NCBI GenBank assembly: GCA_041660065.1
Contig: JBAZXC010000001.1
Location: 72,535 to 136,534, forward strand
DNA: 64,000 nucleotides
Source: Parcubacteria group bacterium
GTDB lineage: Bacteria > Patescibacteriota > Minisyncoccia > Moranbacterales > GCA-2747515
Reading direction: 5' to 3'
Shown: positions 6,411 through 60,218 of the stretch, piece by piece
Layout: the number at the start of each line of letters is the position of its first letter
Position numbering within the stretch: the stretch's first letter is position 1
The notes under the pieces: model-generated
What the model was told of the DNA's origin: nothing
Databases searched by the model: none
What the model saw: the letters and a program-made list of their open reading frames with translations, nothing else
Translations under genes and position numbers: made by a program

Positions 6411-7007
6411 TCAATTACTTTTGTGTAAAACAGTTTCCAAAATTTGTGTGGCAATGACGGAACGATCGCGATCGCCGTCCAGGGACACAAAATGGAAAAG
6501 ATCATTGTATGTGTTGTATAAATTGTTTTTGTCGATAAGGTATGACACGCCTTGCGCAGGCGCAATATTGCGTTGCATGATCTTGTAGGGATCAACAGCG
6601 AGATAAAATGCATGGTCTGGCATGATCAGCATATTTTGAAAAAATGGGATGTATTTTTTACGGGAAAGATATGCGATGTTGACGATCATATCAAAAAAGT
6701 ATCGGTCGGATAAAATATAGTCATACTTTTGCCGAGAAAGTCGTGTGACCAATAAGCGAAAGCGCATCAGATCGATCACGAGTGCGATCTTGCGCATGCA
6801 GATCGCGATCCATGACGCATGTGAGACATCATACGTCTTACCGTCGGACGATCTTTTTTTACCTGCGTTGAGGATATTGGCAACAGAAAAGGTGATCGCA
6901 TGGAAATAAAAAACCTTATGACCGCGATTCTCAAGTTCTTTTTGCAATAGATCGATTTGGGTGGATTTTCCTGATCCGTCAAGGCCGGAAATTGAGATGA
7001 TTTGCAT
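6411..7007 (-). CDS. thymidylate kinase-like (d)NMP kinase
   Basis: P-loop ISISGLDGSGKSTQ and DRY motif (LSDRYFFD) typical of Tmk; 198 aa. Confidence 0.55.
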   Translation of the reverse strand: MQIISISGLDGSGKSTQIDLLQKELENRGHKVFYFHAITFSVANILNAGKKRSSDGKTYDVSHASWIAICMRKIALVIDLMRFRLLVTRLSRQKYDYILSDRYFFDMIVNIAYLSRKKYIPFFQNMLIMPDHAFYLAVDPYKIMQRNIAPAQGVSYLIDKNNLYNTYNDLFHFVSLDGDRDRSVIATQILETVLHKSN

Positions 7008-7192
7008 GAGAAAATGGTAATGATTATGCGGATTTTTCTGTACTCAAGTGTAGCACAAAATAGCATGAAATGGTAGTAATTTTACTGTGTTGATTATTAT
7101 TCTTCAAGCAGGTATTATTATGGTAGGTTTGCAGATTGTTCTTTGGCAAAAAGGCCGTGTTTGTTTTTTTATGCTTTTTTGAGAGGTGATCT

Positions 7193-7300
7193 ATGGAAAG
7201 TGTAGGGTGGGTCGTTCTTTGTGTGGCTGTTGTGATATTCACATTGCGTAAGAGAATTTATGAGAAGGTACAGTATTTGCTGTATAGACTTGGCTTTTGA
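7193..7300 (+). CDS. small hydrophobic peptide (35 aa), hypothetical
   Basis: ATG preceded by GAGAGGTGA RBS; single TM-like segment; followed by a strong terminator. Not in the ORF track (<60 aa). Confidence 0.25.
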   Translation: MESVGWVVLCVAVVIFTLRKRIYEKVQYLLYRLGF

Positions 7301-15383: not shown

Positions 15384-15419
15384 GAATAATTACAAAAAAA
15401 TTCTCCCACAAAATGCTTT
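15384..15419 (-). terminator. rho-independent terminator (minus strand)
   Basis: TCTCCCACAAAA-TGC-TTTTTGTGGGAGA stem; on the minus strand it is followed by a T7 run. Confidence 0.55.
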
Positions 15420-15447
15420 TTGTGGGAGAATGTGATGAATGATCTGA

Positions 15448-16175: not shown

Positions 16176-16209
16176 ATAAAATAAAAGGAGCAGATTATAA
16201 ATCTGCTCC
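16176..16209 (-). terminator. rho-independent terminator of rtcB (minus strand)
   Basis: GGAGCAG-N9-CTGCTCC hairpin followed on the minus strand by TTTTATTTT. Confidence 0.6.
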
Positions 16210-16228
16210 TGCAAAATTCTCTAGCCGT

Positions 16229-17728
16229 CTAATACACGATCACGCTCACCGGTTGCATCTTGGCGACGACGTGTGCGATGCCGTTTGCTTCGACGCCTTC
16301 GATGACGCGATTGATGTTTTTGTACCGTGCGGAGTCCTGGTTGACGACGATGGATGATTTGGCGTTATAGAGGCGTACGCCTTTTTCTTCCATTTTGGCA
16401 AAGAGCTCTTCTTTGTTGGTGATGGATTTTTCATTGATATTTTTGCCTTTGCCGGTTCCGTGCGGTGCGGAATAAAAACTTTCTGCATTACGGTCTGTGC
16501 CGACGCATATGTACGCATCAGTGCTCATGGACGAAGGGATAAATACCGGCTCGCCTGTGTCACGGTAGACGGGATGGTGTTGCATTTTGCTCGGACCATA
16601 GGCGCGGGATGTATTGTTGCGGTGTACCCATACGTCTTTGTCAAAGTGGTTTTCACGCGTGATCGAAATGTGAGGGAGATCATAGATGAGATCCATCTGT
16701 GGATCACGGTTGAGCGTTTTTTTGATCGTTTGGGAAATATTGTGCGCAATCACGGCACGGTTTGCCGTGCCAAAGTTTGATGCGGCGGCGCGTGCATTCA
16801 TATAAAGCTCGCCGTCAGGTCCACATGCATCATAGGTGAGCAATGATTGGTCGCCGGACATGTGTCGTGCGACTTTCTTTTGCATCTTTCGGTAGATCTC
16901 TTTTTTGGTCGAGTTGAATGTCATGCGACCGAGTGCGACCATGATCGCTTGTGAGAGATGTTCGCGTTTTTTTGCGGTGTGGGTGTACATGGTGTATTGA
17001 CCCAAGATGCCGGAACCCGTATGGATCATAAAAAGATATTGTCCTTTGGCGATGCCGAATTTTTCTGCGATTGTTGGGTCGATGATGTCGGTCACTTTCA
17101 TGAGATCGAGGAAATGATTGCCGGCGGCGCCGAGAATACCGAGGCGATATTGCGCAAAATGTAAATAGAGGCGGGGAATCGCGTCAAAAATATCTTGTGC
17201 CGTCATTTCTCTATCAAAGAAATTCCCGCCACTTTGTGTATTGGACAATTCATTTCGTGTGGTGATGCCAAAGTGATCGATCGCAACCGATGTGCCCTTG
17301 CGGCAGATGTCCACGATCGTATCAAATGGCGCATATGTGCCAACGAGTTTTTTGGTAGGGACTGTCTCAACGAGCTGTTCAAATAGCATCCGTATCTCTT
17401 CCGGTGATATATTGTCTTCGGTAAGAGATGTCTTGAGCAGGCGCATGCCACAGTTTGGGTCGGAGTCATTGACTTGTGGGAGGATATATTTATCCGATAC
17501 GATCGTTGTGCCGGAAGCGTTCTTGCGCCCGGGCTTGGAGCACACATCAGGCAGTGCGACTGTGTAACGGAAGAATATGTCTTTATTTGATGCGATGTTT
17601 TCGACTTGAATAAATGTTTGTTCTTCCGGCAAAATATCTTCGCTCATGAAAAATTGCGCCGGAACGGACATTTTTTCTGTCTTGAATTCGTGTAAATGTT
17701 CGGATTTTTTAGTGCAATGTGTTGACAT
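16229..17728 (-). CDS. rtcB: RtcB-family RNA ligase
   Basis: RtcB-like motifs PDVCSKPG, NCGMRLL, HTGSGILGQ, APHGTGKG; ~500 aa. Confidence 0.7.
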   Translation of the reverse strand: MSTHCTKKSEHLHEFKTEKMSVPAQFFMSEDILPEEQTFIQVENIASNKDIFFRYTVALPDVCSKPGRKNASGTTIVSDKYILPQVNDSDPNCGMRLLKTSLTEDNISPEEIRMLFEQLVETVPTKKLVGTYAPFDTIVDICRKGTSVAIDHFGITTRNELSNTQSGGNFFDREMTAQDIFDAIPRLYLHFAQYRLGILGAAGNHFLDLMKVTDIIDPTIAEKFGIAKGQYLFMIHTGSGILGQYTMYTHTAKKREHLSQAIMVALGRMTFNSTKKEIYRKMQKKVARHMSGDQSLLTYDACGPDGELYMNARAAASNFGTANRAVIAHNISQTIKKTLNRDPQMDLIYDLPHISITRENHFDKDVWVHRNNTSRAYGPSKMQHHPVYRDTGEPVFIPSSMSTDAYICVGTDRNAESFYSAPHGTGKGKNINEKSITNKEELFAKMEEKGVRLYNAKSSIVVNQDSARYKNINRVIEGVEANGIAHVVAKMQPVSVIVY

Positions 17729-17847: not shown

Positions 17848-18174
17848 ATGAAAAAATCATTTTTTGTTCTTTTTTTCCTTCTCAACCTCTTATTCTCTCA
17901 GGTGTGCGTGGTCACGGCAGAAGAGATCCCTCTCGGTAAAACGGGGGCGTTTCAGATCAATGATGAAACGTGGCGCGTTCATTTCAAAAAAATGGAAGGC
18001 CGTGTCTGCCGTGTCGATCTGCAAAAAATCGATGGGGAGGCAGTTGTTTTTTCTGAACCTGTCACATTTGATTTTGCGAGAGAGGAACGATATATCTGGA
18101 AGTCGGGCGTCAAGCTCACGATCTTCTATGTCCAAAAAGGGGTGATCGTTCTCGTGAATGGGGAAGAAGTGTGA
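17848..18174 (+). CDS. secreted hypothetical protein
   Basis: N-terminal signal peptide (MKKSFFVLFFLLNLLFSQVCVVTA). Confidence 0.5.
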   Translation: MKKSFFVLFFLLNLLFSQVCVVTAEEIPLGKTGAFQINDETWRVHFKKMEGRVCRVDLQKIDGEAVVFSEPVTFDFAREERYIWKSGVKLTIFYVQKGVIVLVNGEEV

Positions 18175-18184
18175 TGTATGAACA

Positions 18185-18224
18185 AGAGGATGTTTTCCGG
18201 CAGTATCGGAAACATCCTCTTTTA
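18185..18224 (+). terminator. rho-independent terminator
   Basis: ~14-bp stem AGAGGATGTTTTCCG / CGGAAACATCCTCT followed by TTTT. Confidence 0.6.
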
Positions 18225-18225
18225 G

Positions 18226-18345
18226 TTTATAAAGTTGAAAGTCTGTGAAGTCCATAAAGTAGAAAGTCCATAAAGTCAAAAGTCCGTAAAGGTAAAAGTT
18301 TGTAAAGTAGAAAGTCCATAAAGTCCGTAAAGTTATAAAGTTTTT
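18226..18345. repeat. degenerate 16-17-bp tandem repeat array (AAGTCCRTAAAGTNRA-like, ~7 units)
   Basis: Repeated AAAGTCCATAAAGT / AAAGTCCGTAAAG / AAAGTTTGTAAAGT units visible by eye; non-coding. Confidence 0.6.
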
Positions 18346-18410
18346 TCGCAATAGGTAAATAGGTCTTGCTTTACGCGTGGTGAAGTTGTTCGATAGACTG
18401 AAAAATTCTT

Positions 18411-19957: not shown

Positions 19958-19997
19958 AACGACCTTATATTCATATATGAGGTCGTTTTTATTTTTT
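19958..19997 (+). terminator. rho-independent terminator
   Basis: ACGACCT ... AGGTCGT stem followed by a T-run. Confidence 0.55.
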
Positions 19998-20056
19998 CTC
20001 GAGTCGTTGCAGGAGCAGGTTTTACAACCTGTTCCTTTTGTTTATGCAAAACAAAT

Positions 20057-20106
20057 AGGAGGAGCGCAGTACAACTGTGCTCCTGCGAATTCGTTTTTAT
20101 TTTTTC
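20057..20106. terminator. bidirectional terminator hairpin (GGAGCNCAG...CTGNGCTCC family)
   Basis: AGGAGGAGCGCAGT-ACAA-CTGTGCTCCT followed by a T-run on the plus strand and a T-rich tract on the minus strand. Confidence 0.5.
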
Positions 20107-20441
20107 TCGATCATTTTTTCTTTGCCATCTTTTGTGACAGTGATCGTGATGGGATTTGTTGTTTTTTCCACGGTGATGATCTGGTGATTATCTTTTGTGA
20201 TGAAAACATCTTCAGAAACAAGTGTGATTTCACCAGCGATTGCAGTATAGTGAAATGTTGCGTCGGCGGAGTGATTGTCGATCGCGAATGAGTGATTGTC
20301 CTGAGCAAACGGATCGACAAAGTAAATGCTCCAGAAATTCTCATCGTGTTCACGTTGGGTTTTTTCGGTGTATGCCAAGAACAGTATGCTTGCGCTGAGG
20401 CAGATGAGGATGGTTGCGATGATCATGATCTGATTTTTCAT
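20097..20441 (-). CDS. secreted/anchored hypothetical protein
   Basis: N-terminal signal anchor (MKNQIMIIATILICLSASILFLAY). Confidence 0.45.
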   Translation of the reverse strand: MKNQIMIIATILICLSASILFLAYTEKTQREHDENFWSIYFVDPFAQDNHSFAIDNHSADATFHYTAIAGEITLVSEDVFITKDNHQIITVEKTTNPITITVTKDGKEKMIEKK

Positions 20442-20521: not shown

Positions 20522-22504
20522 TTATTGTTTTCTGATGAATAGGCTGAGTTTGTCATTTTGGTAGATGCGGGAGAATTGATCGTTGTGGAGGAACTGTCCG
20601 GCATCTTGTTCTGTGGAGACCAGTACTGCGCCAATGTGGAGGTTGTCATAGCATTGCACTGCCGTGGAGGAGTCCGGTGCGGTGATCATATCCAGTGTGC
20701 ATGTCTCGCGATCCGGATTGGTTTCATAGCGTGCAAGGAGTGCGCGGGAGAGAGGATACGAGTAATCATAGGCGAAAAAGATCTTGAGCCACGTGTCTGC
20801 GGTGATGTAGTTGTGATCTTTGATCATCCAAAAATCGTTTTGGACAAGTTTGCTCTTGAAAACGGTGCTGGCGTATTCACCGGCGTGAAAGGTTTGGAGT
20901 GCATCGTTGGTCTGCGGCGCGTTGTTCATCGATGTCGCGTTGTCGCGCAGTCCTGTGGTGCAGATGAATGTGAGGATGAGCAGGCATGTGGCTGAGAGCA
21001 TCCACTGGGGTACAGCGAGAGAGTCTTTGTTGATCAGTCTGTCAAAAAGCCATGTAACGGCAAAAGCAGTGAGAATTGCGAGAGGAAAAATATTGTACGT
21101 GGCGATACGGCTGGAGATGATATTGATGTAAAGCGTCTGCGGTGCGAGACTCATGAGAAGTATGGATGCTCCCCATCCGATAAAAAAAGCACAACCAAAA
21201 ATATTGATACGCACAGCATCATGTCGCACTTTTGCGCTAAAGAGATATTTCCTGCCAGCAATCGCTGTGAGGAGAAATAATCCGATCACGCCAAAGACGA
21301 AGCGTGCTTCGCCGGTCATGGCAAGTAAGTCTGCGAATGGTGTGCCGGTGCGTGATGACTTGCTCGGTGCACCGACAGAATCAGCAATGACGGAGCTGTC
21401 GAGATATGCGGGTGGTGCGATCACAAAGAGCATCGTTGCGGCAATGATGATGAGGGGAATGATGTAATAGTTTTTGAGAAGTCCAAAGATCTTTGTATAA
21501 TCCGACCAGCGATTTCTTTGCAAAATGATAAAAGTGAGCAAACTAAAGATAAATACATAACCAAAAATGAGTGTGCTCAAGTGATGTGTATACGCAAGTG
21601 CGGTGGTGAGGATCACAGCGGGCACAAGAAGAAGGGCTCTCTTTTCGGTGAAAGCACGATAAAAGAAATAGATGATCGCAGGAATGAGGAGATTGCCGAG
21701 GAGATTGCCGATCACACCGCCACTGACAAATTTTGCCTGCGCTCCGCTGATCGCCCAGAGCGGTCCGATCACGAGGAGGGTGACGATGGCGATCAATGCG
21801 CCACGGGGATGTTTTTTACATACTCTGCGTACGAGGACAAACATCATAAGTGCTGTGAAAATATTGATCACGAGGAGAAACAGTGATGGGAATGTGCTGA
21901 TGACGGATAGATGGGTGAGAATTGCGATCACGCCGAGAAAGATATGCTCGCCGACGATAAAGTCTGCAATTTTATGTGGTGCTGTAAGTTGGGCTGGATC
22001 GGAACTCGTGTCAATCTCGATCTTTTGATAATCAGGCAATGATTTGTCAACGGCAATTTTTTCTACCCAATAGAGATGATGACCGAGGTCGGTCGCTGTG
22101 GGGAAGATCGCATTGATGAGAAAGATCGATTTTATGCAGATCATGAAAAAAATGAGAAACGCGATCACAAAGGTTTGTGTGTGAGAAAATGTGAAGATGT
22201 CGGTGTGTGTCTGTGTCGTTTTTCTGTGTAAAAATAATGATGCAATGAGAAGCGGGACAATGATGCTCGCAAAGAGTGTCAAGAGATGTGCGGGCGTGAG
22301 GGATATGTTGAAATGATCGATGCCGATCACGGACAATGTGATGAGCGCAAAACCGATCGGCACGCTGAGCACGAATTTTTCCAACAATGCGAATTGGTTG
22401 CGTGCAAAGAATGCACGAAGAAAAAGCCATCCCGGCACGATCAGTAATCCAAGTGTTACGCTGATAAACAGGATCTGCTGTACGAAAAAATCATCTATGG
22501 ACAT
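20522..22504 (-). CDS. large polytopic membrane protein (possible GT-C/YfhO-like glycosyl- or polymer-transferase)
   Basis: 660 aa; >12 TM segments in the N-terminal two thirds, then a soluble C-terminal domain. Confidence 0.5.
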   Translation of the reverse strand: MSIDDFFVQQILFISVTLGLLIVPGWLFLRAFFARNQFALLEKFVLSVPIGFALITLSVIGIDHFNISLTPAHLLTLFASIIVPLLIASLFLHRKTTQTHTDIFTFSHTQTFVIAFLIFFMICIKSIFLINAIFPTATDLGHHLYWVEKIAVDKSLPDYQKIEIDTSSDPAQLTAPHKIADFIVGEHIFLGVIAILTHLSVISTFPSLFLLVINIFTALMMFVLVRRVCKKHPRGALIAIVTLLVIGPLWAISGAQAKFVSGGVIGNLLGNLLIPAIIYFFYRAFTEKRALLLVPAVILTTALAYTHHLSTLIFGYVFIFSLLTFIILQRNRWSDYTKIFGLLKNYYIIPLIIIAATMLFVIAPPAYLDSSVIADSVGAPSKSSRTGTPFADLLAMTGEARFVFGVIGLFLLTAIAGRKYLFSAKVRHDAVRINIFGCAFFIGWGASILLMSLAPQTLYINIISSRIATYNIFPLAILTAFAVTWLFDRLINKDSLAVPQWMLSATCLLILTFICTTGLRDNATSMNNAPQTNDALQTFHAGEYASTVFKSKLVQNDFWMIKDHNYITADTWLKIFFAYDYSYPLSRALLARYETNPDRETCTLDMITAPDSSTAVQCYDNLHIGAVLVSTEQDAGQFLHNDQFSRIYQNDKLSLFIRKQ

Positions 22505-22621
22505 AAGAGGTCAATTAATTCTTCTCCCATTAGCATAACATAATAGTGTATTATAAAACAGATGCGTTTTGATGAAGAAAAAATCATCGCTTGCGATTTG
22601 TATGTGTATCAGTGGCAACTG

Positions 22622-22695
22622 TTGCAGGATCACAGTTAAGTGGTGCTTTATGTGTAAAAAATGAAAGAAGCAGGTTGTAAACCTGCTCCTGCAAG
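22622..22695. repeat. direct repeat copy A (terminator-containing) flanking the nitrilase-family gene
   Basis: TTGCAGGATCACAG...GTGCTTTATGT...GAAAGAAGCAGGTTGTAAACCTGCTCCTGCAAG; near-identical to 23678..23763. Confidence 0.6.
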
Positions 22696-22784
22696 AGGAC
22701 TACTTATTTAAATTCACCCGTTGTTCATTGTCTAAGAAAAAGCTATACTGACAATATATTTTTATATCAGGAGATAATAGCTCT

Positions 22785-23594
22785 ATGAAGTTTAACATTG
22801 CTGTTGTACAATTTGAAACCATACGAAAATCTCCAAAAGAAAATTTGCAAAAAGCGGAGCAATTTATAAAAAAAGCAGCATCGTCACATGCAAATATTAT
22901 CGTCTTTCCTGAGAATTTCATCGCTGGATCAATGGAAGAACAATTCAAATATTTCTCCGATTCACGTGAATATTGCACGTATTTTCAACGTCTTGCCAAA
23001 AAATATGCAATTGATATCGTTCCGGGTTCACTTGCCGAAAAAAGCATGTCCAATCTTTATAATACTGCCTATTACATTGACGCAGAGGGAAAGATACGAT
23101 CACGATATCGAAAGATCCACCTTTGGCATCCCGAAAAACCGGTCTTTCGTTCGGGAAAAAAAGTTTTTGTTTTTGATACAAGGTACGGAAAAGTCGGGCT
23201 TATCATTTGTTGGGATCTATTTTTTCCTGAAATGTTCAGGAAAATGTTAAAAATGGGGGTTTCGACCGTTATTTGTCCGAGTTATTGGAGTTATGGAGAT
23301 GCTGGGAAAGGCTTGAAGTATAACAAAAATTCTGAGGCTACACTAATTGATTCGCTTTGTATTGGTAGGGCATTTGAAAATGAAATTATTTTTGTGTATT
23401 GTGGCGCTGTTGGAAAAATAGATACAAATAAAAAACAAGATCTATTGATAGGACATTCTCAGATAACAGTACCATTCAAAGGAGTTTTAAAGAAGTTTGA
23501 CCACAATCGAGAACAGATGTTCGTTCAAGAAGTGGACACTGCTATCCTTGATGATGCTGAACATGTGTATAGGGTTAAGACTGATCTATCTTAA
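22785..23594 (+). CDS. carbon-nitrogen hydrolase (nitrilase superfamily)
   Basis: Catalytic triad context: FPE (Glu), Lys region, IICWD (Cys). Confidence 0.8.
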   Translation: MKFNIAVVQFETIRKSPKENLQKAEQFIKKAASSHANIIVFPENFIAGSMEEQFKYFSDSREYCTYFQRLAKKYAIDIVPGSLAEKSMSNLYNTAYYIDAEGKIRSRYRKIHLWHPEKPVFRSGKKVFVFDTRYGKVGLIICWDLFFPEMFRKMLKMGVSTVICPSYWSYGDAGKGLKYNKNSEATLIDSLCIGRAFENEIIFVYCGAVGKIDTNKKQDLLIGHSQITVPFKGVLKKFDHNREQMFVQEVDTAILDDAEHVYRVKTDLS

Positions 23595-23602
23595 AGCTGA
23601 TA

Positions 23603-23645
23603 TGAGGTTGATAAAAAAATAGCTATCATTCGTTTATGTAAACGA
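23603..23645 (-). terminator. hairpin terminator (minus-strand orientation)
   Basis: Perfect 15-bp inverted repeat GCTATCATTCGTTTA / TAAACGAATGATAGC; T-run on the minus-strand side. Confidence 0.45.
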
Positions 23646-23677
23646 ATGATAGCGATCGTAGTGTGAACGGGAATCTA

Positions 23678-23763
23678 TTGCAGGATCACAGCTATACCGT
23701 GCTTTATGTTTTTGTTATGTGTAGAAAAACGAAAGAAGCAGGTTGTAAACCTGCTCCTGCAAG
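23678..23763. repeat. direct repeat copy B (terminator of the downstream minus-strand GT gene)
   Basis: Same ~85-bp sequence as 22622..22695, with an internal indel. Confidence 0.6.
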
Positions 23764-23804
23764 GTCTGAAAATTCTCTCTTAAGAGGAGAAGGTGTAATG
23801 AGGT

Positions 23805-24935
23805 TTATAAATTTTTCAGAACATCGAGATATTTTTGGGCGATCTTTTCCCAGCTAAAATGTTCAATGGTATAGAGACGTGCATTTTTGCCAAAAGACTC
23901 TCGATCGAAATCATCTGAGAGAACTTCGATGATCTTTTTAATCCACATCTGCGCATTCTCGTGTTCGATGAGAAAGCCGTTTTTGCCATCGTGGACGGCA
24001 TCTTTGAGTCCTTGAAAATTTGATGCGATGACGACACGTTCGCATGTGGCGGTTTCGACGGCATTGATGCCAAAGCCTTCCATAGATCCCGGGATGTCAA
24101 TATTGGGAGAGATGACGAGATCGACGGTGTTGAAGAGGATGATCTTCTCCGCGTCTGGACGATTGGGGAGGAGAAAGACGCGATCATGGAGGTTGTGCTT
24201 TTCTACCATTTTTTGCGCAAGCGGGAGGACATTGTCATCGCCGGCGGTTGTGTTTGATACAGCGCCACCCATTGCGACAAAGATGATATCTCGCGGGAGA
24301 AATGGCATCACCTGATCCAAAAACCATGCAACGCCTTTGTGTGGCACAAAACGACCCATGCGCAAGATCACTTTTTTGTCTGTGAGGTCGGTATGTAATA
24401 ATTGTGCCAATTCTTCGCGCGTATGGGTGAAGAAATACTCCTGTGGGTCAATGCCGTTTGGGATGAATGTGCATCTGTCTCTGTCGATCTCAAATCGTAC
24501 AGCCTCCGTGATCGTGTGCGTGCCGACGGCGATCAGTTTGTCCATGTGGCGCAATGCGGGGATGTTGACGGTGCGATAGACTTTGCCGAGGAGAGAGTTC
24601 TTTTGCGCATAGGTGATATCAAGTCCGTGCACGATGGAGATAAATTTTTTGTGCGGATAAAATATGTGTGCGATGCGACCGAGCGGGGATAATACACCAT
24701 CGCCAAAAAGCACCGCGTCATGTCGTGGCAGGAGAAAAAGCATTTTGCACAGTGCATACGGCAAAAAGAATGGCAAAAATTTCTTGCCTTTTGTGTTGGC
24801 GAGGATCGTGGTCGGCGTGATATCCTTTAATGCGTGCGCGATGCCGTAGTTTTGATTTTCGATCCCGCCAAATACCGGTGGATACGCGCGTGAGATGAAT
24901 AAGATGCGCAAATCCTTATCGGATAATGTAGACAT
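23805..24935 (-). CDS. glycosyltransferase family 1 (GT4-like)
   Basis: GT-B fold, N-terminal LRILFISRAYPPVFGGIE. Confidence 0.8.
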   Translation of the reverse strand: MSTLSDKDLRILFISRAYPPVFGGIENQNYGIAHALKDITPTTILANTKGKKFLPFFLPYALCKMLFLLPRHDAVLFGDGVLSPLGRIAHIFYPHKKFISIVHGLDITYAQKNSLLGKVYRTVNIPALRHMDKLIAVGTHTITEAVRFEIDRDRCTFIPNGIDPQEYFFTHTREELAQLLHTDLTDKKVILRMGRFVPHKGVAWFLDQVMPFLPRDIIFVAMGGAVSNTTAGDDNVLPLAQKMVEKHNLHDRVFLLPNRPDAEKIILFNTVDLVISPNIDIPGSMEGFGINAVETATCERVVIASNFQGLKDAVHDGKNGFLIEHENAQMWIKKIIEVLSDDFDRESFGKNARLYTIEHFSWEKIAQKYLDVLKNL

Positions 24936-24939
24936 GGTT

Positions 24940-25902
24940 TTATAAAATTACTTTGAAGTTATATTTTTGTTTACGCATACGGTACATGGTTTCCTCTGTG
25001 AGTTGGCGGTTGGTCTTGATCATATCGGCGATGAGTGCAAAAACGAGAAATTGCATTCCGACAAAAAACAGTACGATTGATACGAGGAGATAGTTGCGGT
25101 AGGGTGTGATCTGGAGTTCGGGGAGATAGAGCGCGAGGAATAAGATAAACACGAGCACTGATAAAAGGACGACAAAAAGTCCCGGGATGCCAAAAAACTT
25201 CATCGGACGCACATCGCGTATGGCTTTGATGATGATCTTTGCGCTGTTGTTGACAAAATTCCACACACCTAAAACGACGCGCGATTTGCGACCTTCAAAA
25301 TATTGGACGGTTACGGGGACCCATGTGAGTTTGAGATTTTTGCCGATGGCATCGATGATCGTTTCTTGGGTATAAGTAAAGCCAATCACAGTATTGAGTC
25401 GCAAGAGCGCTTCGCGATTATGTGCGCGGAATCCACACGTGAGATCGTGGATCTCGACATTGAGAAATGCGCCAACAAGCTTTGCGGCGAATTTGTTGAG
25501 AACTTTTTTGATCAGAGGGATACCGTTTGCTTTACCGGCTTTGAATCGATCGCCAATCGTCATGTCTGCATCTCCATCCAGAATTGGTTTGAGCATGGCG
25601 CCGATCTGTTGGGGATCGAACTGACCATCTGCGTCAATGTTGACCATGATGTCAGCGCCGTTCTCCAGTGCACTGCGTACGGCGGAGTTAAATGCAATGC
25701 CGAGACGGCGGTTGGTCTTGTGGACGACAACAATATCTGCGCCGGCTTCTCTGGCGGCATCTGCCGTGCCATCGCGTGATCCGTCATCGACCACTTGGAT
25801 AAGTACCTCGGAAATGCCGTCAAAAGAGCGGGGGATTGCGCGAATCGTTTTGCCAATGGATTTTGCTTCGTTGTATGCCGGCATGTTGATGATCAATTTC
25901 AT
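24940..25902 (-). CDS. glycosyltransferase family 2 (polyprenyl-phosphate sugar synthase, DPM1/GtrB-like) with C-terminal TM helices
   Basis: PAYNE..., VDDGS.D.T motifs; two C-terminal TM helices. Confidence 0.8.
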   Translation of the reverse strand: MKLIINMPAYNEAKSIGKTIRAIPRSFDGISEVLIQVVDDGSRDGTADAAREAGADIVVVHKTNRRLGIAFNSAVRSALENGADIMVNIDADGQFDPQQIGAMLKPILDGDADMTIGDRFKAGKANGIPLIKKVLNKFAAKLVGAFLNVEIHDLTCGFRAHNREALLRLNTVIGFTYTQETIIDAIGKNLKLTWVPVTVQYFEGRKSRVVLGVWNFVNNSAKIIIKAIRDVRPMKFFGIPGLFVVLLSVLVFILFLALYLPELQITPYRNYLLVSIVLFFVGMQFLVFALIADMIKTNRQLTEETMYRMRKQKYNFKVIL

Positions 25903-25989
25903 AATGTTTTATCAGCGTTAGTATTTAGGATAATACATGATATATGTTTCCGTGAGATTTGTCTATATTATACACTATAGGACGTCCTC

Positions 25990-26018
25990 TTGACAAAAAA
26001 ACATTTTTCCCCTATAAT
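25990..26018 (+). promoter_or_regulatory. consensus sigma70-type promoter (TTGACA-17-TATAAT)
   Basis: TTGACA at 25990-25995, a 17-nt spacer, TATAAT at 26013-26018. Confidence 0.6.
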
Positions 26019-26024
26019 CACCTT

Positions 26025-26205
26025 AATATTTAAACCAGTTCCTTAATTGAAAAAGTGTGTGGTGACCGCCTACGGCAACACCTCCATGTCAATGCTTCCC
26101 GCTCGCGATACACCTCCTTTCTCTTCGCGCACAAGACCGTATTTTTATGGTTGCCACACACTTTTTCTTCTTTTGCAGCTTCGATCATTCGAGGCTGTTT
26201 TTTTA
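26025..26205 (+). ncRNA. candidate small structured RNA of unknown class
   Basis: Canonical promoter, then a 19-nt closing stem (26049-26067 pairs with 26149-26167) enclosing ~80 nt, then the terminator CAGCTTCGA-TCAT-TCGAGGCTG + T7 (26176-26204). No convincing ORF. Confidence 0.3.
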
Positions 26206-26346
26206 TGACTTTTTGCCATAATTGTAAAAGTGTGCAAGAATACGCGGTTGAATGTCTGTGTGTGCGGGTGTATAATGATTGCATACAAAAAAACATTCAT
26301 TGATCAATGGAAAGTATATAAATATTTTTGGTAAGGGGCATTATAT

Positions 26347-27501
26347 ATGAATATTGGTATCAACGCATCGTTCATGCGAAAGCCCGGTACGGGCATTGGA
26401 CAGGTGACGACGCATTTTCTTCATGAGCTCATTCGACGGTCACATACTGATCGATCGTTCAAAAATCATAAATTCTTCATCTATAGTGAAGAGCTGATCG
26501 ATATGGATTTCCCCAAGAATTTTACGTGCAGACATTTCTTGCCACATTACTATCGACGGGATGATCTTTTCCGCAGACTGTTGTGGGAGAAATTTTCTTT
26601 ACCGTGCTGTGCGCATCGGGATAAATGTGATGTGCTCATCAGTTTGTATCAGTCGGCGACTGTGATCAAGTACACGGACATGCGTCACATCATGGTGGTA
26701 CATGATGTGATCCCGCATATTTTTGCAGAGTATTTGGACAATATGCGGAAGAAAATTTATTGGAAATATGTTGAAAAAGGGATGTATGGATCACATAAGA
26801 TCATCGCTGTATCCGAGTATACAAAGATCGATCTTGCAACGCGACTCAATATCAAAGAACAAAAGATTACCGTTGCGCCAATTGCTGTGGATCCGATTTT
26901 TAGCAATATCGTGTCACAAGAAGAGATGGATCGTGTGATGGATGTATATAAACTTGAAAGTAAGAAGTACATATATACAGGTGGCGGTTTGGAGTTGCGC
27001 AAATGTGCGGATCGTACATTGCGTGCATACAAGATGTTGCGTGAACGGATACCTGATGCGCCGACCCTTGTCATTTCAGGAAAACTGATGCCGGAGCTTG
27101 CCCCGCTTATTGTTGATGTGGAACAAATCGTTTATGATCTGGGACTTGTGGATCACGTGCGCATCATCGGATTTGTACCGCAGGCAGATCTGCCGGCACT
27201 TTATAAAGGCGCAGTTTGTTTTGTCTTTCCGTCATTGTACGAAGGTTTTGGCATGCCGGTACTGGAGGCAATGAATATTGGCACACCGGTGATCACGTCA
27301 AGGGATTCCAGTTTGTCGGAAGTTGGTGGTGATGCGGTTGTGTATGCCGAGCATGATGATGAAGCGTTGTGTGAAAAAATGCGCGAGGTGATCCTCGATC
27401 ACACATTACAAGAAATGATCAGTGCAAAAGAAAAAGAACAAGCACAAAAATTTTCTTGGCAATCTTTTGTTGAAAAGATTTGGGAAACGGTTACAATGTA
27501 G
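26347..27501 (+). CDS. glycosyltransferase family 1 (GT4-like)
   Basis: GT-B fold; C-terminal FVFPSLYEGFGMPVLEAM motif. Confidence 0.75.
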   Translation: MNIGINASFMRKPGTGIGQVTTHFLHELIRRSHTDRSFKNHKFFIYSEELIDMDFPKNFTCRHFLPHYYRRDDLFRRLLWEKFSLPCCAHRDKCDVLISLYQSATVIKYTDMRHIMVVHDVIPHIFAEYLDNMRKKIYWKYVEKGMYGSHKIIAVSEYTKIDLATRLNIKEQKITVAPIAVDPIFSNIVSQEEMDRVMDVYKLESKKYIYTGGGLELRKCADRTLRAYKMLRERIPDAPTLVISGKLMPELAPLIVDVEQIVYDLGLVDHVRIIGFVPQADLPALYKGAVCFVFPSLYEGFGMPVLEAMNIGTPVITSRDSSLSEVGGDAVVYAEHDDEALCEKMREVILDHTLQEMISAKEKEQAQKFSWQSFVEKIWETVTM

Positions 27502-34427: not shown

Positions 34428-34451
34428 ACAACATATGACAGAAAACCCGAA

Positions 34452-34478
34452 TACATGTATTCGGGTTTTGATGTGTAA
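34452..34478 (+). terminator. rho-independent terminator after groES
   Basis: AAACCCGAATACA-TGTATTCGGGTTTT, perfect palindrome followed by T's. Confidence 0.7.
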
Positions 34479-43316: not shown

Positions 43317-43448
43317 AAAGAAAAAAGCAACAAAGAAAAAAGTTGCAAAGAAAGCAACAAAGAAAAAAGTTGTAAAGAAAGCAACAAAGAAAAAAGCAGT
43401 AAAGAAAGCAACAAAGAAAAAAGCAGCAAAGAAGAAATAGTGTTTTCC
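43317..43448 (+). CDS. Lys/Ala-rich histone H1-like small basic protein (43 aa) built from 24-nt tandem repeats
   Basis: ATG with AAGGAAGGTGA RBS; sequence MAAKKKATKKKVAKKATKKKVVKKATKKKAVKKATKKKAAKKK; followed by a terminator. Not in the ORF track (<60 aa). Confidence 0.5.
43321..43440. repeat. 24-nt tandem repeat (x5) encoding ATKKKxxKK units
   Basis: Repeated GCAACAAAGAAAAAAGTTGCAAAGAAA-like units. Confidence 0.7.
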
Positions 43449-53966: not shown

Positions 53967-54365
53967 ATGTCAGAAGATTATCACAAAAGCATTTATAGTT
54001 ATACGGATTTGGATGTTTATAAGAGAGCATATAAATTGTCTATTATTGTATGTACAAAGTTGATCATCAAGTTGCCAAAAGAAGAGCAATTCGTTCTTGT
54101 GGATCAGTTGCGAAGATCGTTCAAAGCAATACCGCGTTTGATTGCAGAGGGATTTGGTAAAAAACATCAGAAAAAAGGTTTTCAAAAATATTTAGATGAT
54201 GCAATTGCTGAAAATAATGAAACGATTGTGAGCCTTTCACATGTACGAGATATTTACCATAAGTGTGTAAATAAATCATCAATAGAAAAAATGATCAGTG
54301 AATATGAGATTGTGGGCAAACAACTGTTTAGATTAAAACAAAGTTGGAACAAATTTTCTCAATGA
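53967..54365 (+). CDS. four-helix-bundle protein (23S rRNA intervening-sequence protein family)
   Basis: DLDVYKRAYKL ... LPKEEQFVLVDQLRRSFKAIPRLIAEGFGKKH matches the family signature. Confidence 0.7.
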   Translation: MSEDYHKSIYSYTDLDVYKRAYKLSIIVCTKLIIKLPKEEQFVLVDQLRRSFKAIPRLIAEGFGKKHQKKGFQKYLDDAIAENNETIVSLSHVRDIYHKCVNKSSIEKMISEYEIVGKQLFRLKQSWNKFSQ

Positions 54366-54422: not shown

Positions 54423-55898
54423 ATGTCAAAAAAGTATAACGTGACAATCGGTATGGAGATCCATGTGGAGCTCAAGACAGAGTCAAAGATGTTTTCCGGT
54501 GCGCCAAATCATTTGGGTATGGAGAAGACGCCAAACATGTCGATCGATCCCGTGACGATGGCGCTGCCGGGCAGTTTGCCGGTGCCAAACAGGAAGGCGA
54601 TCGAATTTGTCCAAAAAGCGGGACTCGCATTGGACTGTGAGATCGCGCGCAAAAGCAAATTTGATCGCAAAAATTATTTTTATCCCGATCTGCCAAAGGG
54701 GTATCAGATCTCGCAATACGATATGCCTCTGTGTGAGCATGGCAAGGTGATGATCGGCGATAAAGAGGTTGGCATTACGCGTATCCACATGGAAGAGGAC
54801 ACAGGGAAATCCACGCATCCGGCCGGTGCGTCATATTCCCTTGTGGATCTCAATCGTGCGGGTGTGCCTCTTATGGAACTCGTGACCGAGCCGGATATCA
54901 CCAGCGGAGCGCAGGCGAGAATGTTTTGTCAGAAGTTACAGCAGATCTTTCGCTATATCGATATCGCCGATGCGGATATGGAAAAAGGACAGATGCGCTG
55001 TGAGGTGAACATTTCTCTTTATAAAGAAGGTGCCGATCGTCTTAGTGGACAGAAGGTGGAGGTAAAAAATCTCAGTTCATTTCGTGTTGTAGAAAGAGCG
55101 ATCGATTATGAGATCGAACGGCAAGCCAAGGCGTTGGATGGTGGCGAAGTGATCGTGCAAGAGACGCGCGGATGGGATGATGCAAAAGGTAAGACTGTAT
55201 CACAACGCAAAAAAGAAAATGCGCATGATTATCGCTATTTCCCGGAGCCGGATATTCCGCCGATGACATTTACCGACGAGTACGTGGAGCAATTGCGTCG
55301 TACTTTGCCGGAGTTGCCGCGACAAAAGGAAGAGCGTTTTATCAAAGAATACGGTCTGAGTGTGCAAAACTGCTCTGTAATCACGGCGGATATCGCGATG
55401 GCAAATTACTTTGAGCATGTTGTCAGTGAGATCATGGAAAAAAAGGCGTCCGGTGAAATGCGATCCGAACCCGAAAAGGCCATAAAACTTGCCGCAAACT
55501 ATTTGGTCAGCGAAGTGCAAAAACATCTCGTCAAAGAAGGACAGAGCATTGATGATATAAAAATTTCCGCGGAGAATTTTGCCGAACTCATGGCAATCGT
55601 TGCAGATGGCACGATCAATTCGTCGGCGGCACAGATCGTTTTGGAAGAAATGTTTTATGGTAAGGACGATGACCCAAGTCATATTATCGAAGCAAAAAAT
55701 CTCTCACAGGTGTCAGACACGGGTGCATTGGAACAGCATGTCGATGACGTTCTTGCGCAGAATGCACAGTCTGTGGAGGATTACAAAGCCGGCAAAGAAA
55801 ATGCGATCAAGTACCTTATGGGACAAGTAATGAAAGTTTCCGGCGGAAAAGCCAATCCACAAATGGTGATGGAGATCTTGAAAGAAAAGTTGAAATAA
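54423..55898 (+). CDS. gatB: Asp/Glu-tRNA amidotransferase subunit B
   Basis: GatB N-terminal (IGMEIHVEL) and C-terminal GatB/YqeY domain. Confidence 0.9.
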   Translation: MSKKYNVTIGMEIHVELKTESKMFSGAPNHLGMEKTPNMSIDPVTMALPGSLPVPNRKAIEFVQKAGLALDCEIARKSKFDRKNYFYPDLPKGYQISQYDMPLCEHGKVMIGDKEVGITRIHMEEDTGKSTHPAGASYSLVDLNRAGVPLMELVTEPDITSGAQARMFCQKLQQIFRYIDIADADMEKGQMRCEVNISLYKEGADRLSGQKVEVKNLSSFRVVERAIDYEIERQAKALDGGEVIVQETRGWDDAKGKTVSQRKKENAHDYRYFPEPDIPPMTFTDEYVEQLRRTLPELPRQKEERFIKEYGLSVQNCSVITADIAMANYFEHVVSEIMEKKASGEMRSEPEKAIKLAANYLVSEVQKHLVKEGQSIDDIKISAENFAELMAIVADGTINSSAAQIVLEEMFYGKDDDPSHIIEAKNLSQVSDTGALEQHVDDVLAQNAQSVEDYKAGKENAIKYLMGQVMKVSGGKANPQMVMEILKEKLK

Positions 55899-55972
55899 TC
55901 ACTGTTGCGGTGTAATGCTCGTTGTCATTCCCGCGCAGCCTGCCTGCCGGTAGGCAGGGCGGGAATCCAGAT
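55875..55972. repeat. direct repeat left copy (last 8 gatB codons + spacer + nested REP)
   Basis: ~85% identical to 56306..56415, which encodes ILKEKLR* in place of gatB ILKEKLK*. Confidence 0.65.
55921..55972. repeat. REP-like palindromic element copy 2 with nested inner palindrome
   Basis: GTTGTCATTCCCGCGCAG-CCTGCCTGCCGGTAGGCAGG-GCGGGAATCCAGAT. Confidence 0.6.
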
Positions 55973-55978
55973 TTGTCT

Positions 55979-56263
55979 ATGAAAAACTATTTTGTTTATA
56001 TATTGGCAAGCAAAAGAAATGGCACTCTTTATATTGGTATAACGAGCAATTTGCAAAGACGCATATATGAGCATAAAACAAAACAGATTAAAGGATTCAC
56101 AGAAAGATATGGCGTAGATCATCTTGTATATTTTGAGCAGACGACGGATGTGTACAGTGCTCTAACAAGGGAAAAACAATTAAAAAAGTATAACAGACTA
56201 TGGAAATTGCGATTGATTGAAGAACAGAATCCGCAGTGGCAGGATCTTTCAGAAGATTTGTAA
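55979..56263 (+). CDS. GIY-YIG nuclease family protein (UPF0213/YhbQ-like, ~94 aa)
   Basis: YFVYILASKRNGTLYIGITSNLQRRIYEHK = GIY-YIG core with Arg and Glu. Start set at MKNYF; the ORF-track start 55922 lies inside the repeat. Confidence 0.7.
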   Translation: MKNYFVYILASKRNGTLYIGITSNLQRRIYEHKTKQIKGFTERYGVDHLVYFEQTTDVYSALTREKQLKKYNRLWKLRLIEEQNPQWQDLSEDL

Positions 56264-56305: not shown

Positions 56306-56415
56306 ATCTTGAAAGAAAAGTTGAGATAATTATGTTGTGATATTGGGAATGGGCATTGTCATTCCTGTGCAACCTGCCTGCCGGTAGGCAGGGTAGGCAG
56401 GGCAGGAATCCAGAT
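56306..56415. repeat. direct repeat right copy (gatB-tail-like fragment + nested REP copy 4)
   Basis: ATCTTGAAAGAAAAGTTGAGATAA ... ATTGTCATTCCTGTGCAACCTGCCTGCCGGTAGGCAGGGTAGGCAGGGCAGGAATCCAGAT. Confidence 0.6.
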
Positions 56416-56418
56416 CTA

Positions 56419-56994
56419 TTAGATCAACACATTGATGTGGAAGAAATAGTAGATCGTGCCAATCACTTCATGGATGAAAAATTGGGGCTCTTTGAAGTAG
56501 CGACCGTGATAGTAGTTTGCACGGTGGAGAGAAAAATCTGTAATGCCATGTTGTCTCGCAAGGACGGCGATGCGTCCGAGATGAAAGTCATTGGAAACAA
56601 AGACAAAACTTTTATTTTTGGGGAGATTTTTGATCGTGGCGTGCGTGTTGAGTCCGTTGTAATCCTCGATGATGTCTTCGGTGGCAACGTTGTTTTTTTG
56701 CGCCAAGTCTAGCATGACGTCTACTTCGTGTGCGCCATACGTACTGGGACCGCCGGAAAGAACAAGGCAGGACACAGTATTATTCTTATATAATCCAATG
56801 CCGGTCATTGTGCGGTCATAGAGTGCATGTGATGGGATGGCATCACGCCACACGGCAGCACCAAACACCACAGCGCAATCTTTTGGCTCTGTGGATGCAT
56901 GGAAATAATTTGCAATTGTGTAAAATGCGCTTGCAAAGATGACTGTAAATATTATAGCAATCAGCGCAATGCAGATCTTGATGAATTTTTTCAT
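56419..56994 (-). CDS. DUF218/YdcF (SanA/ElyC-like) membrane-anchored protein
   Basis: N-terminal TM anchor; DUF218 motifs (VVFGAAVW ... LVLSGG). Confidence 0.65.
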   Translation of the reverse strand: MKKFIKICIALIAIIFTVIFASAFYTIANYFHASTEPKDCAVVFGAAVWRDAIPSHALYDRTMTGIGLYKNNTVSCLVLSGGPSTYGAHEVDVMLDLAQKNNVATEDIIEDYNGLNTHATIKNLPKNKSFVFVSNDFHLGRIAVLARQHGITDFSLHRANYYHGRYFKEPQFFIHEVIGTIYYFFHINVLI

Positions 56995-59876: not shown

Positions 59877-59954
59877 TATGAGATATTTTTGCAGTGCTGC
59901 CTTGATCTTGCCGAGAGGTATTCGTTTTTGTTGAGGAGAGATCCACCCGAGGCG

Positions 59955-59974
59955 CCTGCCTGCCGGTAGGCAGG
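59955..59974. repeat. stand-alone copy of inner palindrome CCTGCCTGCCGGTAGGCAGG
   Basis: Identical 20-mer to the inserts in REP copies 2 and 4. Confidence 0.5.
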
Positions 59975-60218
59975 GATTAATTTTTCTTTTAGAAAAATTA
60001 AAAAGCGTCAACAACAAATACTGCAAACTTTGTACTGAGACCCTTCTTTGGAGAGGGGCGGTTCCACTCAGTTTCCCGTTTTTGTTGTGGGCGCTCTTTG
60101 GATCGTGCATCTCACGTGTACACGTCATTACGCAGACTCCATAGTTTGGTAGGCTATATCATCATCTGTATGAAATTGTACTTGTATTGTGGCATGAAAA
60201 ATGGCAGGATGTCAAGCA

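Follow-up and report, generated by a model that had tools for sequence, protein, structure and literature searches.

Introduction

Miniature inverted-repeat transposable elements (MITEs) include members bearing terminators or promoters, such as the Correia elements of Neisseria, and MITE-flanked composite units, for example, integron mobilization units, exist as well. REPINs and BIMEs represent doublets of repetitive extragenic palindromic (REP) sequences, which are mobilized by RAYT transposases (Bertels & Rainey, PMC3337134, PMC3116915), and some REP classes have been co-opted as terminators featuring flanking A/T runs (PMC3337134). Full-text searches of the literature yielded no account of MITE- or REP-like elements, nor of mobile terminators, in bacteria of the Candidate Phyla Radiation (CPR)/Patescibacteria. 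In this study, a stretch of 64,000 nt (the window), located on a 469-kb contig of a Moraniibacteria-like CPR genome, was analyzed with a focus on two near-identical repeats, referred to as copies A and B, which bracket a single gene encoding a carbon-nitrogen hydrolase of the nitrilase superfamily.

Copies A and B are not a unique duplicated terminator, but belong to a dispersed family, whose basic unit is the hairpin TTGCAGGAGCAGGTTTACAACCTGCTCC with a T-run behind it. Comparison with related loci supported the hydrolase as a lineage-specific accessory gene residing in a variable slot between a GT2-GT1 glycosyltransferase pair and the gene for a DUF6541 membrane protein. The two repeats are probably, although by no means certainly, sister copies, the hydrolase having entered at a resident element and left one copy on each side.

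The Repeats Bracketing the Hydrolase Gene

The segment comprising the hydrolase gene and both repeats features the following elements:

22614/22622-22695, minus strand: repeat copy A, a full element and inverted doublet (59.7 bits with the covariance model of the hairpin)
22666-22690: module-1 hairpin of copy A with a T-run on the minus strand; its degenerate module 2 lies at 22622-22647
22696-22784, plus strand: hydrolase leader, unique and AT-rich, with a GGAG ribosome-binding site and promoter-like hexamers (putative function)
22785-23594, plus strand: carbon-nitrogen hydrolase (nitrilase superfamily, PF00795), 269 aa
23619-23656, minus strand: AT-rich hairpin (18-bp stem) separating the hydrolase stop codon from copy B
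23670/23678-23763, minus strand: repeat copy B, a full element, 12 nt longer than copy A (59.0 bits)
23734-23758: module-1 hairpin of copy B with a T-run on the minus strand

The first-pass annotation had described the two repeats as near-identical apart from an indel, and this was borne out by an identity of 89% across the element and a local-alignment score of 89, which was met by none of 2000 shuffles. The repeat search divided the similarity into two blocks, namely 22657-22695/23725-23763 (97% over 39 nt) and 22614-22653/23670-23709 (80% over 40 nt), and the 33-mer GAAAGAAGCAGGTTGTAAACCTGCTCCTGCAAG, representing the exact 3' part common to A and B, occurs twice in the 64 kb, with zero occurrences expected in shuffled sequences. 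Alignment by means of MAFFT placed a single 12-nt indel between the copies, which looks like a slippage event, because it is bounded by a TTATGT direct repeat in copy B. The presence of a terminator hairpin in each repeat was likewise confirmed: in both copies, an 11-bp hairpin precedes a minus-strand T-run, and AGGAGCAGGTTTACAACCTGCTTCT together with its T-run was flagged by the terminator scan.

Furthermore, each copy terminates in inverted repeats (TTGCAGGA...TCCTGCAA), with ends that read TTGCAGGA(G/T)CA... and ...TCCTGC(A/G)A and are of the TTGCAGGAGCA type. In the predicted folds, these ends always pair around the inner GC hairpin, with z-scores of approximately -3. Full copies are 74-94 nt long and contain no open reading frame (ORF). 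The inverted-repeat ends, as well as the additional family members C and D introduced below, are features that go beyond the first-pass annotation.

Copy A lies upstream of both adjacent genes, at a distance of 109 nt from the DUF6541 start codon and of 89 nt from the hydrolase ATG, and no minus-strand gene lies immediately upstream of it, as had been noticed before. Copy B starts 41 nt past the GT1 stop codon, in keeping with its earlier description as the terminator behind this gene. The only ORF between the two copies is that of the hydrolase, which also agrees with the previous reading of the locus. Homology between A and B stops exactly at the element ends, the flanks being no more alike than shuffled sequences; a larger segmental duplication was ruled out on these grounds.

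A Dispersed Family of Hairpin Elements

Two further family members and the direct repeats flanking one of them were identified in the window:

20003-20090, plus strand (opposite to A and B): copy C, a full element between convergent genes
20007-20035 and 20053-20089: module 1 and the inverted module of copy C
19983-20002: left target-site duplication of 20 bp, TCGTTTTTATTTTTTCTCGA, flanking copy C
20091-20110: right target-site duplication of 20 bp, holding the stop codon of a 114-aa gene (20097-20441, minus strand)
16186-16215, minus strand: copy D, a hairpin-only singlet, TTGCAGGAGCAGATTTATAATCTGCTCC plus T-run (57.7 bits)

Copy C, being 73-78% identical to A and B, surfaced in a BLAST comparison of a short public contig with the window, and copy D was found by pattern search. 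The latter differs by one compensated base pair (GCAGGTT/AACCTGC to GCAGATT/AATCTGC). A covariance model built from the hairpin module and run over the window scored copies A, B, C, and D with 53-60 bits (E<1e-14), and nothing besides these four exceeded 21 bits in the forward reading. The second module of copy C was matched by this model on the opposite strand (20.6 bits, E ~4e-4), which makes the full element a doublet, in which one hairpin unit occurs twice in inverted orientation around a T-rich spacer. In A and B, module 2 is degenerate, that of B scoring 9 bits. In total, the window holds three full copies and one singlet, all of them extragenic; extrapolating four per 64 kb to the whole contig would yield, speculatively, about 30 per 469 kb. 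Rfam returned no family for the repeat, neither at gathering thresholds for the whole window nor at permissive E-values for 22450-23900, where the top match was a chance-level one to the AT-rich hairpin.

The hairpin is also present in at least two other genomes, with 26-28 nt being identical in the Moraniibacteriota metagenome-assembled genome (MAG) ELA282 (contigs L002/L003, resolved as metagenome contig L004) and in a second locus, L005. An exact 22-25-nt core lies at the ends of two ELA282 contigs, and L005 holds the core once, behind another gene. Apart from the hairpin, neither L004 nor L005 shares DNA similarity with the window. Exact-core scans of genomes and metagenomes yielded only 2 + 2 loci, and the family is therefore either rare or too variable for exact patterns; viral contigs scanned for the core gave 0 matches.

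Both loci show additional repeat structures. In the ELA282-like L004, positions 6877-7212 comprise two tandem units of 165-172 nt with 95% identity behind an ABC-transporter-like gene, and the MAG assembly of ELA282 breaks at this tandem repeat. Each unit is preceded by a copy of approximately 21 nt of the upstream gene end (AAACG..CGAGCTAGG..TTCT), recalling the 20-bp duplication at copy C. In L005, a 171-nt inverted repeat (1233-1399) lies beside the family hairpin and is itself composed of hairpins, whose stems are of the GCAGGTT...AACCTGC type; these may represent further, more diverged versions of the hairpin unit.

Across seven copies of the hairpin, 97% of the cells are paired, with one compensated pair, and all three one-sided changes (3/3) are G-U on the T-run strand. 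These changes fit selection on an RNA hairpin, with weak covariation statistics (the observed value was met by 75 of 500 shuffles), because the hairpin sequence barely varies. What is conserved across genomes is the hairpin sequence, which suggests that a protein recognizes it, rather than that termination itself is maintained.

Insertion of Copy C

The gene at 20097-20441 has orthologs of 114-116 aa in two related loci (L007 and L009), which end with GAGAAAAAATAA and are directly followed by a lineage-specific terminator hairpin. In the window, 20 nt (TCGAGAAAAAATAAAAACGA on the minus strand) are found on both sides of the 88-nt copy C: one 20-nt copy represents the gene end and the other one directly precedes the ancestral-type hairpin, with copy C residing between them. 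The duplication is perfect and adjacent to the element, and 0 of 300 shuffles matched it. Since the relatives possess the 20-nt stretch only once and the window has it duplicated around the element, copy C is, by this comparison of sequences, an insertion with a 20-bp target duplication. Duplications of such length are unusual, but those above 15 bp have been described for a subgroup of the IS1202 family (PMC10132070). For copies A and B, no target duplication was detected, even with two mismatches allowed, and none was detected for a composite A..B unit. Taken together, the hairpin doublets constitute a small, dispersed, and probably mobile family.

The Hydrolase and Its Slot in Related Loci

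The hydrolase is a complete member of its superfamily: it matches PF00795 with E=7e-37 over positions 2-248 of 256 (Pfam), and its Glu-Lys-Cys motifs are intact (FPE, RKIHL, and ICWD, as aligned to PH0642/1j31). Regarding NCBIfam equivalogs, the protein stayed under the cut-off of every one. Apart from the protein itself, the best matches show 55-65% identity, most of them carrying no name. Named homologs originate from CPR bacteria (Falkowbacteria and Nealsonbacteria) and DPANN archaea, with single matches to Promethearchaeota and Acidobacteriota, and there are no Moraniibacteria among them. As this clade unites CPR bacteria with DPANN archaea, it has some relevance to gene flow among episymbionts. 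At the two loci of hydrolase homologs examined (L010 and L011), no element was present beside the gene. The hydrolase leader (22696-22784) was not flagged by the consensus promoter scan.

The GC and codon usage check suggested in the first-pass annotation gave a divided answer. On the one hand, the gene features a GC content of 0.36 and a third-position GC content (GC3) of 0.30, compared to a GC3 of 0.55-0.56 in its neighbors, which may be regarded as supportive of a foreign origin, but is not decisive. On the other hand, composition as proof of such an origin was rejected, because the deviation amounts to only 1.5 standard deviations below the window mean (z = -1.5).

The slot is delimited by three genes, all encoded on the minus strand:

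20522-22504, minus strand: DUF6541/DUF1616-type membrane protein, 660 aa (DUF6541)
23805-24935, minus strand: GT1/GT4-type glycosyltransferase (GT1)
24940-25902, minus strand: GT2 glycosyltransferase, preceding GT1

Named homologs of the membrane protein and of GT1 belong mostly to Moraniibacteriota. Seven related loci were compared, featuring 54-82% protein identity in the genes flanking the slot. Their arrangements include the following:

L007 (DUF6541 74%): GT4, 546 nt of non-coding sequence, DUF6541; without GT2, GT1, and hydrolase
L008 (DUF6541 66%): a 341-aa unknown gene in the slot, opposite strand
L009 (DUF6541 59%): GT2-GT1, a 176-aa unknown gene on the opposite strand, DUF6541
L012 (GT1 82%, DUF6541 57%): GT2-GT1, a 138-aa unknown same-strand gene with its own terminator, DUF6541
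L014/L015 (GT1 79%): GT2-GT1, 95 nt, DUF6541; an empty site

The GT2-GT1 block (23805-25902) shares 75% DNA identity with L012. In the blastn comparison with this locus, homology ends at 23804, that is, at the GT1 stop codon, and resumes at approximately 22560, in the DUF6541 promoter, so that copy B, the hydrolase, and copy A all lie inside the non-homologous gap. In none of the seven related loci was the hydrolase, or a pair of bracketing repeats, found between the glycosyltransferases and DUF6541. The slot is empty in L014/L015 and occupied by other cargo in L012, L009, and L008, which supports an insertion of the hydrolase. The previous reading, in which a single gene was inserted into the glycosyltransferase locus, is thus supported by synteny, and the arrangement named at that time as speaking against it, namely relatives with a hydrolase ortholog between the same two repeats, was not encountered in these loci.

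The hairpin family is absent from the compared relatives' loci. A search for element remnants in their slots gave a best z-score of 3.7, on an A/T-rich stretch. The 11-mer CAGGATCACAG, being part of the element end, occurs in the empty slot of the closest relative, L007 (7595-7605), and was discarded as a candidate remnant (z = 2.5, probably chance). The slot of L009 holds one bidirectional terminator and no repeats.

The glycan locus as a whole (20522-27501) is a mosaic, GT1 being nearest to L012 (82% protein identity) and DUF6541 being nearest to L007 (74%). In view of this mosaic structure, the slot is a recombination junction, and the locus documents a hot spot of gene turnover within a cell-envelope glycan cluster.

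Origin of the A/B Pair

Copies A and B are mutually closest, with 89% identity compared to 73-78% to copy C, and they have a derived change in common (CTCC to CTTC, G-U), which is absent from C, D, L004, and L005. As their origin, we favor a resident element that was either duplicated or used as a site of recombination, since both copies lack target duplications and share derived changes. The positions of the copies can be matched to terminators of relatives: copy A resides where L012 has one, just upstream of the DUF6541 promoter, and copy B where L009 has one, behind GT1. In the proposed sequence of events, a single resident element would have been located behind GT1, serving as its terminator. 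A fragment comprising the hydrolase gene, the leader belonging to it, and an AT-rich hairpin of foreign origin would then have entered at this element, either in a break-and-fill-in event duplicating the resident copy or through recombination with another copy residing on the incoming DNA; both routes would have left one element copy on each side of the hydrolase. The duplication-mediated capture of the GT1 terminator, as considered in the first-pass annotation, survives as one possibility; however, the repeats belong to a dispersed, mobile-looking family with members in C, D, and other Moraniibacteriota, so that independent insertions or recombination between copies are conceivable as well.

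Independent transposition, with the hydrolase already in place or arriving separately and two element copies later landing on either side of it by chance, would agree with copy C showing that the family can insert, with the location of all known copies at gene ends or in intergenic regions, and with the confinement of A-B homology to the element, as separate insertions would give. We nevertheless regard this course of events as unlikely, because neither A nor B shows the duplication of approximately 20 bp seen at copy C, the shared derived changes make the two copies each other's closest relatives, and the placement of two of three copies in adjacent gaps and in the same orientation would seldom arise by chance (p ~0.04 in a simulation). 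Rather doubtful, too, is the integration of a cassette-like unit consisting of the hydrolase and one element copy, e.g., a 1,068-bp circle, by recombination at the resident element, which would act as the recombination site in the manner of attC or of a Campbell-type integration. Direct repeats around one self-contained gene are the pattern of a single-crossover integration, the slot carries different single genes in different relatives, and a k=31 assembly graph, in which Logan contig L001 spans 22666-23760 with the hairpin at both ends, would equally fit a circle plus an empty site. However, the cargo genes of the relatives lack flanking repeats, the element ends do not fit the R''/R' consensus of attC, the window contains no integrase and no second cassette or array, and the two hydrolase homologs examined have no element beside them.

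That the hydrolase and both repeats were ancestral to the lineage is scarcely credible: a divergence of approximately 11% plus one indel between A and B indicates that the pair is not brand new, but 7 of 7 related loci are devoid of the hydrolase and the repeats at this place, one of them being an empty site. An assembly artefact, in which metagenome assembly joined a low-GC segment of 1 kb, derived from a different population, to repeat copies on either side, is very improbable as well. It would explain why the segment is bounded by an exact repeat of 33-49 nt, why an independent k=31 assembly breaks at this repeat, and why the GC content of the segment is unlike that of its neighbors. A read is, however, considerably longer than the exact repeat, and since the two copies are not identical beyond it, reads can resolve the path; moreover, L001 joins the unique left part of copy B to the hydrolase, and the hydrolase protein is recorded on the 469-kb contig in NCBI and JGI records, and in Logan.

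The proposed entry of the hydrolase at a resident element has to be weighed against several observations of its own. With three full copies only, A and B could also both derive, recently, from a single master copy. Direct evidence of mobility is limited to the 20-bp duplication at copy C, and Pfam annotation of the ORFs in the 64-kb window yielded neither a transposase nor an integrase or a RAYT. The compositional deviation of the hydrolase is modest, and the closest relatives share only 54-82% protein identity, which leaves the timing of the insertion coarse. Finally, the hairpins of L004 and L005 are without a good T-run on either strand, and termination is therefore not a conserved property of the family.

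Predicted Terminator Role of the Elements

The terminator scan flagged a hairpin plus T-run in all four copies of the window. Copies B, C, and D lie directly behind genes, and copy A has no gene upstream on its own strand. Based on these features, the hairpin would work as a Rho-independent terminator on the T-run strand, and the doublet, with its T-rich spacer facing both hairpins, may be able to terminate from both directions. Copy B is likely the terminator of GT2-GT1 on the minus strand, and copy D would terminate the RtcB gene (16229-17728). Copy C, located between convergent genes, presumably offers a hairpin and a T-rich tract in both directions. Within the slot, the second module of copy B, the T-rich spacer, and the AT-rich hairpin at 23619-23656 would face the convergent hydrolase, and copy A may shield the DUF6541 promoter from read-through or antisense transcripts.

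The AT-rich hairpin has its T-run on the minus strand, i.e., against the hydrolase, and resembles the terminator of a convergent gene that is absent here. This orientation hints that it may have been carried in from a convergent neighbor in the donor.

Other Repeats in the Window

A second, unrelated repeat family features the nested palindrome GTCATTCCCGCGCAGCCTGCCTGCCGGTAGGCAGGGCGGGAATCCAG and is located at 55875-55975 and 56306-56412, with a core copy at 59954-59975. Two of its copies mark the 5' ends of a gene for a GIY-YIG nuclease (55922-56263) and of the ORF that follows (56356-56712), and a duplicated 25-nt stretch precedes each of these two copies; the family may represent a GIY-YIG-associated mobile unit. 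Tandem repeats were observed at 43324-43433 (a 27-nt unit in 4.1 copies with 95% matches, intergenic between a DUF456 gene and a PrmC-like methyltransferase gene) and at 18229-18341 (periods of 16 and 25 nt, AAGTCCATAAAGTAGA, within or beside the unannotated ORF 17890-18351). Self-BLAST additionally revealed a perfect palindrome of 28 nt at 34442-34469 and a near-perfect one of 32 nt at 15400-15431, both probably being terminators. The gene for a '23S rRNA intervening sequence protein' (PF05635) at 53967-54365 has the lowest GC content in the window (0.313) and stands alone between the MazG and GatB genes.

Comparison with Known Systems

The gain of an accessory gene is in itself otherwise ordinary, and the novelty lies in a repeat element in an under-studied phylum. 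A dispersed palindromic element that brings along ready-made terminators, is able to insert between genes, and flanks a recently gained gene suggests a route by which CPR bacteria may take up and insulate foreign genes. It is an improbable proposition that the doublet represents a new mobile 'terminator cassette' in CPR bacteria, which inserts with an unusually long target duplication of approximately 20 bp and whose copies act as landing or recombination sites capturing single genes. If true, such an element would be a driver of gene gain in streamlined, repeat-poor genomes.

As far as integron cassettes are concerned, the locus resembles them in that a single gene is bracketed by imperfect palindromes of 74-94 bp in direct orientation, which falls into the size range of attC sites. 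Unlike cassettes, the ends lack RYYYAAC...GTTRRRY, neither an integrase nor an array is present, the relatives show no cassette-like organization, and the hydrolase has its own leader and lies opposite to its neighbors. An assignment to attC sites was rejected, because the ends read TTGCAGGA... and ...TCCTGCAAG on both strands, without R''/R' cores, and there is no integrase; the sole attC-core-like GTTAAGT lies inside copy A and is not kept in copy B. With MITE-flanked composites, the locus shares the bracketing of cargo by two directly oriented miniature elements, but it differs from them in having no target duplication outside the pair and no sign that the unit has moved. The 11-bp GC-containing stem with a loop of 3-4 nt followed by a T-run in A-D is like that of intrinsic terminators. 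In contrast to ordinary terminators, which are not sequence-conserved, 26-28 nt are identical across loci and genomes.

MITEs and the element have in common the small size, the non-coding nature, terminal inverted repeats, several copies, an intergenic location, and a target duplication at one copy; as with MITEs, an effect on the transcription of neighboring genes is to be expected. The differences are a short inverted repeat (8-11 bp), no known parent insertion sequence (IS), and the target duplication being present at copy C only, with two of three full copies being without. Most MITE families generate target duplications of 2-10 bp, compared to 20 bp at copy C. A specific MITE family, for which the parent IS would be needed, cannot be claimed for the element, and the same applies to REPINs, for which a RAYT and a copy-number census would be needed.

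REPINs differ from the element in three respects: no RAYT or IS200-like gene is present in the 64 kb, the copy number is low (4 in 64 kb), and the host is a CPR bacterium, the examples in PMC3337134 and PMC3116915 originating from Pseudomonas and Enterobacteria. Regarding target duplications, which would not accompany the insertion of a REPIN, copies A and B have none, and copy C has one of 20 bp. A duplication of this length is not expected from Y1-transposase chemistry; target sites are not mentioned in PMC3337134. Like REPINs, the elements are short extragenic imperfect palindromes composed of two inverted units with a variable spacer and complementary ends, and they are accompanied by singlet remnants (copy D and L005) and by tandem clusters (L004, two units of 165-172 nt). 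With inverted doublets, singlets, tandem clusters, and co-option as terminators, REPINs and BIMEs represent the best architectural match to the family described here.

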